Of a stretch of DNA of 38,465 nt, positions 18,928 to 23,020 are shown in pieces. The number at the start of each line of letters is the position of its first letter. Positions within the stretch are counted from its first letter, which is position 1. This DNA is from Sediminibacterium ginsengisoli. Lineage in GTDB: Bacteria; Bacteroidota; Bacteroidia; Chitinophagales; Chitinophagaceae. The notes under the pieces are model-generated. The model was not told the origin of the DNA and did not search any database. It saw nothing but the letters and a program-made list of their open reading frames with translations. The translations under genes were made by a program, and so were the position numbers. The DNA lies in the NCBI GenBank assembly GCA_945860335.1, contig CAMAQW010000001.1, forward strand, positions 1 through 38,465, given 5' to 3'.

Positions 18928-19959
18928 ATGAAATCTCAATTATTCAGAAATAATATCATTTTATTTCTTTTTATTATTTTAATTGGTTGTTCTAAAAGTT
19001 CAACCGGTGGAGGAACAACGCCTCCACCACCAACTCCGCCTGTTACTTCTACAACAGCAAAGTTAATGACCTTGCCCCCGGGCTGGAAATTTTCTAGTAC
19101 TATTTCACTTAATTTTCCTAGCGGTATTGAGCTCTATTTTTTTGATAGTATTTATGCTGGAAAAAAAACAAAAATGTTTTGCTTGGCTTACGATAGTAAA
19201 AATACCAGCATAGAATTTAAGCCAGTATTAGCTGCAACTGCAAAAAAAACGAGTGACTTTTATAAGGATGAAGTGGGTACTGTTTATGCGGCACTCAACG
19301 GTGGTTTTTTTGGATCCAATCAATCTTACAGTTTAGTCAAATACAATGGAACTGTAAGCTCAGCAAATATTAAAGTATTGAGCAGAACATTTAATGGGGT
19401 GAGTACTTCTTATTATCCTACTCGCGCTGCTTTTGGCGTTACTTCAACGGGTATTTACCAGTCTGCATGGATTTATCATGTAGGTGCTGGTAATGATTTA
19501 ATATATTCTTATCCATCTCCTAGTCCTAATGTAGAAGGAAAAGCACCCATGGCATTGCCTACTGAGCTTTTTCCAACGGGAGGCAAAGTGTGGGATATTC
19601 ATTCTGCAATTGGGGGATCGCCTCAATTATTAAAAGATGGCAAACTTTCTATTTCTGATACTGCCGAAATGATTGTGATAAACAATAAAACATCTAGGCC
19701 TAGGTCGGCTATTGGATTTACAAATAACAATTTGGTTTTGTTATTGGCTGTTGAAGGGGATAATACGGTTGGTGGGTATGACGGCGTTAATCTTTTAGAT
19801 CTGAGTAATATTATGGCCTCATTGGGTTGTCAAGATGCCATCAATTTAGATGGAGGTGGTTCTACAAGCATGGTGGTATCTAGTCAACAGCTTGTTCGCC
19901 CTGGAGACAATGGTATTGAAAGGCCAGTTGTATCTGCTGTTTTAATTAAAAAGAAATAG
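18928..19959 (+). CDS. Phosphodiester glycosidase (NAGPA-like) lipoprotein
   Basis: Lipobox LIG-C, Pro/Thr tether, ALNGGFF, PRSAIG, AINLDGGGSTSM, RPVVSA motifs. Confidence 0.88.
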   Translation: MKSQLFRNNIILFLFIILIGCSKSSTGGGTTPPPPTPPVTSTTAKLMTLPPGWKFSSTISLNFPSGIELYFFDSIYAGKKTKMFCLAYDSKNTSIEFKPVLAATAKKTSDFYKDEVGTVYAALNGGFFGSNQSYSLVKYNGTVSSANIKVLSRTFNGVSTSYYPTRAAFGVTSTGIYQSAWIYHVGAGNDLIYSYPSPSPNVEGKAPMALPTELFPTGGKVWDIHSAIGGSPQLLKDGKLSISDTAEMIVINNKTSRPRSAIGFTNNNLVLLLAVEGDNTVGGYDGVNLLDLSNIMASLGCQDAINLDGGGSTSMVVSSQQLVRPGDNGIERPVVSAVLIKKK

Positions 19960-19983: not shown

Positions 19984-20019
19984 AAAAAAAGCCGCTCCTT
20001 ATGGAAGCGGCTTTTTTTT
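19984..20019. terminator. Bidirectional intrinsic terminator (PUL end and tRNA-like RNA end)
   Basis: A7-GCCGCTCC-TTAT-GGAAGCGGC-T8; U tails on both strands. Confidence 0.88.
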
Positions 20020-20020
20020 G

Positions 20021-20184
20021 CTGTAGGGGGAGGGATCGAACCTCCAGAAGGCAGTTAGCTATAACACAAAGTTCAGTGGTCGACCCTGGTCGCTTATTGC
20101 TAAGCGGCTCTATGTTACGTTTATCCCGTTATCCTCACCCTCGAGACAAGAGGGCATGTTTGCCTAATATTTCATCACCCCACA
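20021..20184 (-). ncRNA. tRNA-like RNA (anticodon GUC/Asp) with 92-nt structured variable-arm insertion
   Basis: Minus strand: acceptor TGTGGGG/CCCTACA plus G73; T8 G9; D arm ATG-AAATATTAGGCAAA-CAT; anticodon arm CCCTC-TTGTCTC-GAGGG; insertion 20137-20046; T arm GGAGG-TTCGATC-CCTCC. CCA not encoded. Confidence 0.85.
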
Positions 20185-20219: not shown

Positions 20220-20252
20220 CAATGTTAAACCATTAGGCCTATTCGTTACAAA
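20220..20252 (-). promoter_or_regulatory. Candidate Bacteroidota housekeeping promoter for the tRNA-like RNA
   Basis: Minus strand TTTG (20252-20249), 21-nt spacer, TAACATTG (20227-20220; one mismatch to TAnnTTTG). Confidence 0.55.
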
Positions 20253-20335: not shown

Positions 20336-20812
20336 ATGAACCCAAAATTGAATCTTGACAAACTCGATTTACAGATTATTCAGGAAATGATGGAGGATGC
20401 TGAAATTTCCTACGCCGATTTAGGTAAAAAACTCTTTGTGTCGGGTGGTACCATCCACGTGCGTATAAAAAAATTAGAAGAACTGGGTGTAGTAAAGGGT
20501 AAAAAATTATCTGTCGATTTAAAAGAACTCGGTTACGACGTAATTGCTTTTATTGGCATCTATCTCGAAAAAAGTTCGCTGTATGATAGTGTTGCCAAGG
20601 AATTAAAAAAAGTACCACAAATTGTGCGTTTAAATTATACCACCGGTAATTATAGCATGTTTGCAGAAATTGTTTGTAAAGATATTCAGCAGTTGCGTTA
20701 TGTTTTACATGATGAGCTGCAAAAAATAAAAGGTATTGAAAGAACAGAAACATTTATTTCACTCGAAGAAAGTTTGGTGCGCAGTGTAGTGGTTTCTCCA
20801 ACTTCGGAATAG
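20336..20812 (+). CDS. asnC: Lrp/AsnC family transcriptional regulator, AsnC-like
   Basis: LDKLDLQII, SYADLGKKLFVSGGTIHVRIKKLEELGVV HTH, YTTGNYSMF, LQKIKGIERTETFISLE closely resemble E. coli AsnC motifs. Confidence 0.85.
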   Translation: MNPKLNLDKLDLQIIQEMMEDAEISYADLGKKLFVSGGTIHVRIKKLEELGVVKGKKLSVDLKELGYDVIAFIGIYLEKSSLYDSVAKELKKVPQIVRLNYTTGNYSMFAEIVCKDIQQLRYVLHDELQKIKGIERTETFISLEESLVRSVVVSPTSE

Positions 20813-23020
20813 TTATTTTTCACGCACATTAAAAGCGTCTCTTAATCCGTTTCCAAGTAAATTAAATGCAAGCACTAGTATCATAATGGCAATGCCAGGT
20901 GCTAGTGCAAGTGCCGGATTGTGGGTGATAATAAAATTATAATTTTCTTTAATCATCAGGCCCCAGCTGGGTTGTGGCGGTTGAACACCCACGCCTAAAA
21001 AACTTAAGCCTGCTTCAATTACAATCGCAGATGCAAAATTACTCGCAGCAATTACGAGTACGGGTCCAATAATATTGGGTAAAATATGTAAAAATATGGT
21101 GCGTGTATTGGAGTAGCCAAGTACCTGTGCCGCTTCAATAAATTCTCTGTTTTTAATGGCCATTACCTGACCGCGCACAAGCCTTGCAACATTCACCCAC
21201 ATGGTTAATCCAACTGCAATAAACACTTGCCAAAATCCTTTTCCTAAAACAAGTGTAATTGCAAACACTAGCAGTAATGTTGGAATACTCCAAATAACAT
21301 TGATAAACCACATAATGCATTCATCTATCCAGCCTCTATAAAAACCGGCTAATGCACCCAGTAAAATGCCAATAGTGAGTGATAGTAAAACAGCAATCAT
21401 GCCAACACCAAGGCTTACTCTTACGCCAATAATGAGGCGGCTTAACATGTCCCTGCCAAACTTATCGGTACCTGCGTAATAGGTTTGTTTAATAACTGGT
21501 TCTTTGGCAGCTAAGCTTAGTGGCATTACACCAGCTTCTGTAATGCCTTCATCAATATATTTCTGGTAATAAATAGAATCACCTTTTATGTGGTAAGAGG
21601 TGATTGGAATAAAGGTATTCGCGTCCTCTTTGCCATTTAATAGCCTATCAAAAAATGAAGCATTTGTTGTTTGTCCTATTCGTTTTACTTGAAGTAATTG
21701 AATCGTAAATCCAGGCTTCATGCTTCCTATTTCAGGAATCATGCGGTTGGCGTTTGGCGAATGTTCGGGTGCTATAAAATAAGCAAACACCGCCATCAAA
21801 AAAGCAGCGGTAATAATATAAAGTGATACACTTGCAGGTTTATTTCGTTTTAATTTTGTAAAAAAACGATCTGGTTCATTTTTAGTTACGGTGCGACCTT
21901 TCCATTTGTAAGATCCAAATGTGCCAAACCAACCAGCCACCACCGTATATAAAATATGAAATGGTTGCATGAATAAAAACCACCAGAGTAACTTTTGTTG
22001 TTTAAAAAATTTGGCAGCTGCATACATAAATGGAAGTTCAACAAGTGTTTTACAACCTATAAAAACAAACCAGTTATTGATATTACCAGTTTCTATTAGG
22101 TTAACGGGGAGGTACACCAATAACGAAAAATTTACCAGGTACACCAGCAGTAATATCCAAAAAATAATTTTGTCTTGATAGCCAAGCGCCTTACTAGACC
22201 AGCGTATCCGCTGTTGTATAAATAAATCTAACGTCGCACTTGGGGCCGTTGTAACCACTGTATCCTGCGCGTATAAGTATCCAATTTTTTCTGGATACGA
22301 TTTTTTCATTTTATGCATCAGTAGCATATCGTCGCCACTGGGTAAATGATCAATGCCACTAAATTTTCCAACGCTTTCAAAGGCTTCTTTACTATAACAC
22401 AAATTAGCGCCGTTGCAGAGTGTGTGTGAACCAGAGCCAACAGCTGCTGCCGTAATACCTTGTAAACTAATAAAATCTAAAACCTGAAAAACCGATAAAA
22501 AGCTTCCGGTATTTTTATAGCTTACTGGCGCCGCAATCATTACGCAGTTATGCTCCTGAATATATGCATCATAACTAGCCAGCCAATTATTGGTAAAACT
22601 GCAATCAGCGTCGGTGGTAACAATCCATGGATGATTTGCCTGTTCAATGGCAATTTCTATGGCTCTTTTTTTATACGCTACTATATTTTCATCTTTTGTA
22701 AAATCTTGCAGGCGCAGTAATCTTACATTGTTATATTGTAAAGCGATTGATCCAACAATGTTTGCGGTTTCATCTTCCGAAAAATCATCTATTACAATCA
22801 ATTCAAATAAATGAGAAGGGTAGTTTTGCGCCAAAATACCCGCTATGCAGTTTTCAATGTTAGCCGCTTCATTGCGGGCCGGAATGACAATCGAAAACTT
22901 AGTTTGAGGTGTTTTGCCCTTAGCCACAAATGCGCGCAGGTTCCAGTGCCCCCTTGTATACAAGGCCATTAATACGCCGTAGGCGGCCAATAAGCAAATG
23001 GTTACCGTAAAAAGGTACAT
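20813..23020 (-). CDS. Fusion: GT2 glycosyltransferase (N-terminal) plus OppC/DppC-type ABC permease (C-terminal)
   Basis: SIVIPARNE, IDDFSED, TTDADC, SGDD, QRIRW and WKGR (GT2); then KRNK, GTDKFGRD, EFIEAAQVLG, HILPN, LSFLGVGVQPPQPSWG, LLGNGLRDAF (OppC). Confidence 0.85.
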   Translation of the reverse strand: MYLFTVTICLLAAYGVLMALYTRGHWNLRAFVAKGKTPQTKFSIVIPARNEAANIENCIAGILAQNYPSHLFELIVIDDFSEDETANIVGSIALQYNNVRLLRLQDFTKDENIVAYKKRAIEIAIEQANHPWIVTTDADCSFTNNWLASYDAYIQEHNCVMIAAPVSYKNTGSFLSVFQVLDFISLQGITAAAVGSGSHTLCNGANLCYSKEAFESVGKFSGIDHLPSGDDMLLMHKMKKSYPEKIGYLYAQDTVVTTAPSATLDLFIQQRIRWSSKALGYQDKIIFWILLLVYLVNFSLLVYLPVNLIETGNINNWFVFIGCKTLVELPFMYAAAKFFKQQKLLWWFLFMQPFHILYTVVAGWFGTFGSYKWKGRTVTKNEPDRFFTKLKRNKPASVSLYIITAAFLMAVFAYFIAPEHSPNANRMIPEIGSMKPGFTIQLLQVKRIGQTTNASFFDRLLNGKEDANTFIPITSYHIKGDSIYYQKYIDEGITEAGVMPLSLAAKEPVIKQTYYAGTDKFGRDMLSRLIIGVRVSLGVGMIAVLLSLTIGILLGALAGFYRGWIDECIMWFINVIWSIPTLLLVFAITLVLGKGFWQVFIAVGLTMWVNVARLVRGQVMAIKNREFIEAAQVLGYSNTRTIFLHILPNIIGPVLVIAASNFASAIVIEAGLSFLGVGVQPPQPSWGLMIKENYNFIITHNPALALAPGIAIMILVLAFNLLGNGLRDAFNVREK

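Follow-up and report, generated by a model that had tools for sequence, protein, structure and literature searches.

The locus and its RNA

The window, meaning the whole stretch of 38,465 nucleotides of Sediminibacterium ginsengisoli DNA that was analysed, contains a gene for an oversized tRNA-shaped RNA, flanked by a promoter-like element, a terminator-like hairpin and the gene of an AsnC-like regulator (Table 1). An earlier note, made from the sequence alone, had described the four paired arms with their sizes, the 92 nt between anticodon and T arms, U37, the missing CCA, the promoter-like element and the terminator directly downstream; all of these were confirmed, with the RNA on the minus strand. 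When the window was searched by script for four-arm cloverleaves with complete pairing, this was the only site, and the shuffled controls gave none (0 of 200 dinucleotide shuffles). The acceptor stem comprises 7 bp with one G-U pair, the anticodon GUC occupies 20147-20145 and the genomic bases 3' of G73 are CAA. At its conserved base the variable arm consists of a 4-bp stem, a 3-bp stem and an RAYAAA/CUAA internal loop. With its 3-bp D stem and A15:U48 the class II core is of what we take to be the Leu type.

Table 1. Features of the RNA gene and its flanks in the window.
Feature	Position	Strand	Description
tRNA-shaped RNA gene	20021..20184	-	U1 at 20184 to G73 at 20021, 164 nt; CCA not encoded; based on model R1 and covariation
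Acceptor stem, 5' strand	20178..20184	-	pairs with 20022-20028; U1-A72, G2-C71, U3-A70
Class II (Leu-type) D arm	20156..20175	-	3-bp stem, A15, GG, extra nucleotide after position 20
Anticodon arm	20138..20154	-	5-bp stem; loop UUGUCUC with GUC, U37, C38
Structured variable arm	20046..20137	-	92 nt; conserved base, long helix, two distal hairpins
T arm	20029..20045	-	5-bp stem, loop UUCGAUC, A51-U63
Promoter-like element	20220..20252	-	Bacteroidota-type; -33 TTTG, -7 with one mismatch
Terminator-like hairpin	19984..20018	.	15-bp stem, T runs on both strands; directly downstream of the RNA
AsnC-like Lrp-family regulator	20336..20812	+	divergent from the RNA

The promoter assignment follows the pattern TTTG/TAnnTTTG, which is in use in the literature and which we take to be the Bacteroidota consensus; of 95 host copies, 69 have an exact TAnnTTTG in the 110 nt upstream, a count made without shuffled control. 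The hairpin is probably common to the RNA and the convergent gene at 18928-19959. For the regulator the best NCBIfam match is PRK11179 AsnC (E 1.8e-45, below the cut-off of this model) and the best PDB match is E. coli AsnC (2cg4, E 4e-32). Next to it, a 735-aa ORF (20813-23020, minus strand) combines a GT2-family glycosyltransferase domain with an OppC-type ABC permease domain, being either an unusual fusion or an assembly artefact.

Standard tools pass over the element. ARAGORN reports 0 genes in the window and leaves the site at 20021..20184 uncalled even with introns allowed. Rfam gives no tRNA match in the window at E<=10, with terminator-like matches below threshold only, and at the gathering threshold of Rfam 15 no family is assigned to the window or to six homologous loci, short phage forms included. 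Neither program identifies the element as a known family, in agreement with the earlier note, which had recognised none.

Contigs lying on the element were found in eight freshwater metatranscriptome runs. One is identical to the window over 20030-20174 and another over 20030-20157, and both span the whole 92-nt arm. No joint skipping the arm was found in these eight runs, although a rare form may be lost when contigs are assembled. Positions 20030 and 20174, some ten bases within the predicted ends of the RNA, are found repeatedly as adapter ends. Since contigs are blind to strand, ends, level and possible DNA, they show only that the unspliced form occurs in RNA libraries. The RNA is covered by contigs much more deeply than its neighbours, a measure that cannot rank genes and therefore gives no expression level.

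Homologs, structure and distribution

A DNA search gave matches in 31 of 36 genomes of the same genus. The covariation alignment comprises 54 distinct sequences from hosts and phages; 97.0% of its cells are paired, compared to 43-55% in slid-alignment controls, and two-sided changes were found in 27 of 36 pairs, including pairs of the arm. None of 500 shuffles reached this level, a control that is inflated by the relatedness of the sequences. Folding of the single minus-strand sequence gives z = -1.68 with a minimum free energy structure that misses the anticodon arm and is weak evidence; the variable arm folded alone gives z = -1.59 and plus-strand folding is not significant. The case for the structure rests on covariation, not on single-sequence folding. 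Host forms measure 109-212 nt and phage forms 90-171 nt, the distal arm varying freely, and A15:U48 is present in all 95 parsed host sequences. We conclude that this oversized tRNA-shaped RNA of Bacteroidota and their phages is real and conserved.

Carriers were counted with model R1, which scores the locus in the window at 128.5 bits. True members lie above 65 bits and ordinary class II tRNAs below 60 bits, and a match had to exceed both 65 bits and 100 nt to be included; an R1 tally of 132 of 151 was rejected as a carrier count, as it includes ordinary class II tRNAs below 60 bits. Among 110 near-complete genomes from the order to which the window belongs, 61 have the RNA at E<=1e-11; these matches include one degenerate copy and one cut by a contig end. 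Elsewhere in the phylum, R1 found true members in 3 of 135 genomes outside the order, and one more was found separately. When named genomes were scanned with a sequence pattern, 121 loci were obtained; extrapolation from 4 of 64 parts gives an estimate of about 2200 stretches. All 80 loci whose titles were listed are from Bacteroidota (Chitinophagales, Saprospiraceae, Cytophagales and some Flavobacteriales), and cultured carriers include Chitinophaga pinensis, Dyadobacter and Persicobacter.

In some genomes 2 to 10 copies are arrayed in tandem. Ten or more copies, several of them degenerate and with G37, stand upstream of asnC in L333 (G267:C11:18376-19714), and three lie directly behind aspS on the opposite strand in L339 (G258:C3:245257-247661). 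Genome G116 (L173, L334) has one copy with a damaged 5' half and a second one beside asnC, which is cut by the contig end and has a small hairpin inserted in its D loop.

The AsnC-like gene was found in all 61 carriers of the order set and in 12 of 49 non-carriers. It is adjacent to and divergent from the RNA, at a distance of 137-324 nt, in 42 of the 61 carriers, and for 69 of the 121 named-genome loci it was found in the flanking sequence retrieved (up to 600 nt). A search with filters off for a divergent copy upstream of asnC in 12 non-carriers found none. Outside the class, one genome of the phylum has a copy beside asnC (L168, G179:C26:26724-26865), which suggests that the pair was transferred together. 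Upstream of asnC in L322 (G211:C14), a genome without gatB and with AsnA, leader and terminator are kept and the RNA body is deleted. Family f22 (L325-L332), which has asnC and gatB and no RNA, shows a different short conserved hairpin at the RNA's place, directly upstream of asnC (e.g. L329:790-900), with a purine-rich loop, a similar promoter upstream and z -2.57. This hairpin, for which Rfam gives no match in L325 or L329, could be another AsnC-controlled small RNA.

A pattern scan of viral sequences gave 120 loci, many of them in tRNA arrays; the number of viral stretches with the gene is about 140. A normal tRNA-Asp stands beside 9 of 80 phage loci. Short forms of 90-95 nt (L048, L065 and similar), i.e. 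of normal class II size, keep all acceptor and anticodon marks, and ARAGORN labels 7 of the 80 loci tRNA-Asp. Position 1 is A in three phage copies (L052, L121, L124), two of which are complete and have A1-U72. At loci L039-L158 the distal arm hairpin is often capped by a short self-complementary loop, a possible dimerisation site. No dedicated partner protein was found in the 12 of 153 phage clusters scanned, where the neighbours are terminase, exonuclease, PhoH and thymidylate synthase, and one phage copy used as query had no match in 50,697 GenBank phage records.

Identity marks and decoding features

Among 89 distinct host sequences aligned with R1, U1-A72 is found in 88, G2-C71 in 87, U3-A70 in 85, G73 in 88, A51-U63 in 86 and A10-U25 in 83; in copies from named genomes U1-A72 occurs in 134 of 135. 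GUC and G73, which the earlier note had named as AspRS identity elements, are thus near-invariant in the homologs: the 87 seven-base loops have GUC in 85 and UUC in 2 cases, although this constancy is partly model-driven because R1 was trained on GUCUC loops, and all 87 have C38. The invariance of the phage anticodon is circular, as the scan patterns required the anticodon loop. Position 37 is U in 73, G in 8 and C in 6 of the host loops and never A, and 13 of the 87 have a base other than U at position 33. The extra D-loop base after C20 is an A and falls within a class II D loop, a setting in which it may or may not hinder GatCAB.

In the part of PMC9976931 that was available, G73, G34, U35, C36 and C38 are strong Asp determinants, G2-C71 is a minor one and G10 is listed for bacterial Asp identity, whereas U1-A72 makes a tRNA a target of amidation by GatCAB, a reaction for which G1-C72 and U20a are antideterminants. 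With the Asp marks and U1-A72 both near-invariant, the RNA joins the marks for Asp charging to the mark for amidation.

The RNA shares G34, U35, C36, C38, G73 and G2-C71 with bacterial tRNA-Asp(GUC). It differs from it by U1-A72 in place of G1-C72, A10 in place of G10, A51-U63, a 3-bp D stem, a 92-nt arm where a class I tRNA has a short variable loop, the lack of a strict U33 and of a regular purine at position 37, which is U or C in 79 of 87 loops and never A; the normal tRNA-Asp is a separate gene. Class II tRNA-Leu likewise has a 3-bp D stem, A15:U48 and a base-paired variable arm, but the RNA carries G73 instead of A73, an Asp instead of a Leu anticodon and a branched arm several times longer. 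As a candidate GatCAB substrate it offers U1-A72, with GatB encoded in the same genome, but not the GUU anticodon. Two tandem copies in genome G190 (L172:1501-1610 and 1723-1831) combine UUC (Glu) with U1-A72 and G73 and are possibly a Glu-to-Gln version or a case of relaxed reading.

Gene content of carriers and non-carriers

The 110 near-complete genomes of the order were cross-tallied by hand, GatCAB being tracked via gatB. This gene is present in 94 genomes, among them all 61 carriers, and the RNA occurs in none of the 16 gatB-less genomes. GlnRS was found in 59 of 110. Of the 43 genomes with both GlnRS and gatB, in which Gln does not depend on GatCAB, 42 have the RNA; in the lone exception the contig breaks off some 260 nt upstream of asnC. 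In turn, 32 of the 33 non-carriers with gatB lack GlnRS, so that GatCAB is needed there for Gln-tRNA anyway. Joint loss of RNA and gatB recurs in four families (G092/G138; G186/G242/G280/G285; G282; G211). The Fisher significance of this profile is overstated because related genomes are not independent.

AsnA and classical AsnB are absent from 58 of 61 carriers, AsnA being present in the other three, and all four non-carriers of family f4 have AsnA. Neither enzyme was found in 41 of 49 non-carriers, nor in 11 of the 16 gatB-less genomes; non-carriers of this kind manage without a visible Asn route. Classical AsnB was scored with the PRK09431 model, as TIGR01536 is too broad for true asparagine synthetase B. 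A broad AsnB-family model matches 105 of 111 genomes, 58 of 61 carriers included, and some of these enzymes could make Asn.

Outside the order gatB is present in 4 of 4 carriers, and in the same class both gatB and GlnRS in 3 of 3, while about 20 of 21 non-carriers of the class outside the order lack gatB. For the other classes of the phylum, GlnRS was tested in 20 of 58 genomes with gatB, one of them from the window's class; it is present in 9 of the 19 non-carriers tested, so the tight rule linking RNA and gatB is restricted to the class. Such genomes may use the Bdellovibrio route (PMC4206432, available part).

Genome G000 has gatB, GlnRS, AsnRS, AspRS and a normal tRNA-Asp; among the ORFs scanned beside its gatB neither gatA nor gatC was found. 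In carrier genomes all five chromosomal-type copies of the ordinary tRNA-Asn that were read have U1-A72; one further copy, located within a tRNA cluster in G046, has G1-C72. As tRNA-Asn keeps U1-A72, GatCAB has another possible substrate. The AspRS N-termini (91 sequences) do not distinguish carriers from non-carriers. The His and Gly of the non-discriminating AspRS of P. aeruginosa are absent from them and Lys is present as in E. coli, residues that we take as a marker of discrimination, if an imperfect one; literature searches gave no paper on these residues.

Proposed function

The earlier note had interpreted the element as an intact, expressed tRNA mimic that can be aspartylated and as a poor decoder. 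An intact, conserved, standalone gene with AspRS identity marks and weak decoding features, whose RNA occurs in an arm-keeping form, is supported by our results; aspartylation is a prediction. That reading had missed the invariant U1-A72, the Leu-type core, the divergent AsnC-like gene and the co-loss with gatB, which taken together point towards a working substrate or cofactor of asparagine synthesis more than to a generic mimic.

Based on sequence comparison, we propose with a probability of roughly 65% that the RNA is a dedicated, non-decoding carrier for the conversion of Asp to Asn. Its gene would likely stand in for an asparagine-synthetase gene, the RNA being loaded with Asp, which is then converted to Asn without any codon being read. 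Found in RNA libraries with its arm, it would be transcribed as a discrete minus-strand molecule with the predicted ends, matured and provided with CCA. The single AspRS of the cell would recognise the observed marks GUC, C38, G73 and G2-C71 and load Asp, and GatCAB, whose gene is lost together with the RNA, would amidate it via the conserved U1-A72. The giant arm, the non-A base at position 37, the relaxed U33 and A51-U63 would exclude the RNA from the ribosome, since an Asn-loaded tRNA with GUC would misread Asp codons. Asn would finally be released and reused by AsnRS, a step for which there is no candidate release factor. The adjacent AsnC-like regulator would probably turn the RNA on when Asn is low. 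In E. coli, AsnC activates the divergent asnA at low Asn; there, too, an AsnC-type gene faces an asparagine-related gene, but the divergent partner in our case is an RNA gene and its control by AsnC is a prediction. Amplification to as many as 10 copies in an array fits a substrate for which dose is important. Against a carrier speak A10 instead of G10, the lack of G1-C72 and perhaps the extra D-loop base, since U20a in the D loop is a GatCAB antideterminant.

A wider version of this proposal is more tentative, and we consider it somewhat less probable than its opposite. The RNA would then represent an undescribed class of metabolic carrier RNA that replaces asnA under AsnC control, with a discriminating AspRS and GatCAB making free Asn on a reusable, ribosome-excluded body. 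The base of the arm would dock the enzymes or aid release, and large phages would use the RNA to raise the Asn supply during infection.

The closest rival is a scaffold or activator RNA that tethers AspRS to GatCAB for the ordinary tRNA-Asn and is itself not amidated. It predicts the same gene profile as the carrier, explaining the co-loss with gatB and asnC equally well, and the Thermus transamidosome has a non-substrate scaffold tRNA (PMC3367201, available part). The U1-A72 of the ordinary tRNA-Asn fits this role, and the conserved internal loop in the arm base could bind protein. Against a scaffold, the acceptor end conserves all of the marks for charging and for amidation, and tandem amplification to 10 copies fits a substrate better; we regard it as unlikely.

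Somewhat less probable still is a regulatory mimic, i.e. a decoy or sensor under AsnC control that makes no Asn and instead titrates out AspRS or GatCAB or signals Asp/Asn status. The regulator adjoins the RNA in 42 of 61 carriers and phages carry the RNA in their tRNA arrays, which both speak in its favour. It leaves unexplained, however, why gatB is retained only with the RNA in GlnRS-bearing genomes (42 of 43, against 0 of 16 without gatB) and why AsnA is found in 4 of 4 non-carriers of family f4.

A Ser-accepting tRNA of the allo-tRNA kind, charged by SerRS via long arm and G73 and either reading GAC/GAU or donating Ser, appears improbable. SerRS recognises its tRNAs by a long variable arm and G73, and some allo-tRNAs have GUC (PMC5389517, PMC7609411, available parts); the 90-95-nt phage forms with their ARAGORN label tRNA-Asp (7 of 80 loci) are also of normal class II size. 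Yet the acceptor branch is 7/5 throughout, not the 8/4, 9/3 or 13-bp branch of allo-tRNA or tRNA-Sec-like molecules, GUC and C38 are held although SerRS ignores the anticodon, the core with A15:U48 is Leu-type, a link to gatB is not expected, and G000 as well as the surroundings of 9 of 80 phage loci contain a normal tRNA-Asp.

An intron-containing precursor or decayed pseudogene, to which the silence of ARAGORN and Rfam and a few degenerate copies (G116, the G267 array) might point, is largely refuted and very improbable: the stems covary, arm included, arm length varies continuously, removal of the arm would not restore A37, and in place of the spliced product of normal size that the earlier note had considered, the eight RNA runs gave arm-spanning contigs, one identical over 20030-20174, and no joints.

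Relation to known systems and significance

The proposed carrier resembles the indirect Asn pathway of Thermus, Deinococcus, Bdellovibrio and H. pylori, in which a non-discriminating AspRS, tRNA-Asn and GatCAB also convert Asp to Asn on a body with U1-A72 and G73 (PMC4206432, PMC3367201, available parts). In contrast to this pathway, it would be a separate gene with Asp anticodon, class II core and giant arm, need no relaxed AspRS and deliver no Asn to the ribosome. Allo-tRNAs and selC* tRNAs likewise combine a long variable arm with G73 and sometimes GUC and occur in bacteria and phages; judged by the available part of PMC5389517, the RNA differs from them in its 7/5 branch, its fixed anticodon and its linkage to asnC and gatB.

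DNAVirus_1850, an unnamed viral structured RNA candidate of 66 nt with 27 occurrences, marine only, has one occurrence overlapping an ARAGORN tRNA-Asp call, and the available part of PMC10690425 describes no host or function for it. Likened by description only, it may correspond to part of the phage RNA (PMC10690425, available part). A published description of the RNA was not found in our search, which lay mostly outside the subscription literature, and it is apparently undescribed in print.

In about 2200 genome and about 140 viral stretches standard tRNA finders miss the gene or mislabel it as tRNA-Asp. If chargeable, a tRNA body that tolerates arms of 20-140 nt would be a useful scaffold, and since cultured hosts exist, the carrier idea is directly testable. 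If true, it would represent a third design for asparagine synthesis, in which a purpose-built RNA replaces a synthetase or a relaxed AspRS. According to the available part of PMC4206432, some Bacteroidetes that have neither AsnA nor AsnB retain GatCAB in addition to AsnRS and GlnRS. Why they do so is not answered in that paper, and the carrier would provide an explanation in many Bacteroidota. It would also give the conserved AsnC-like regulator of the phylum a target.
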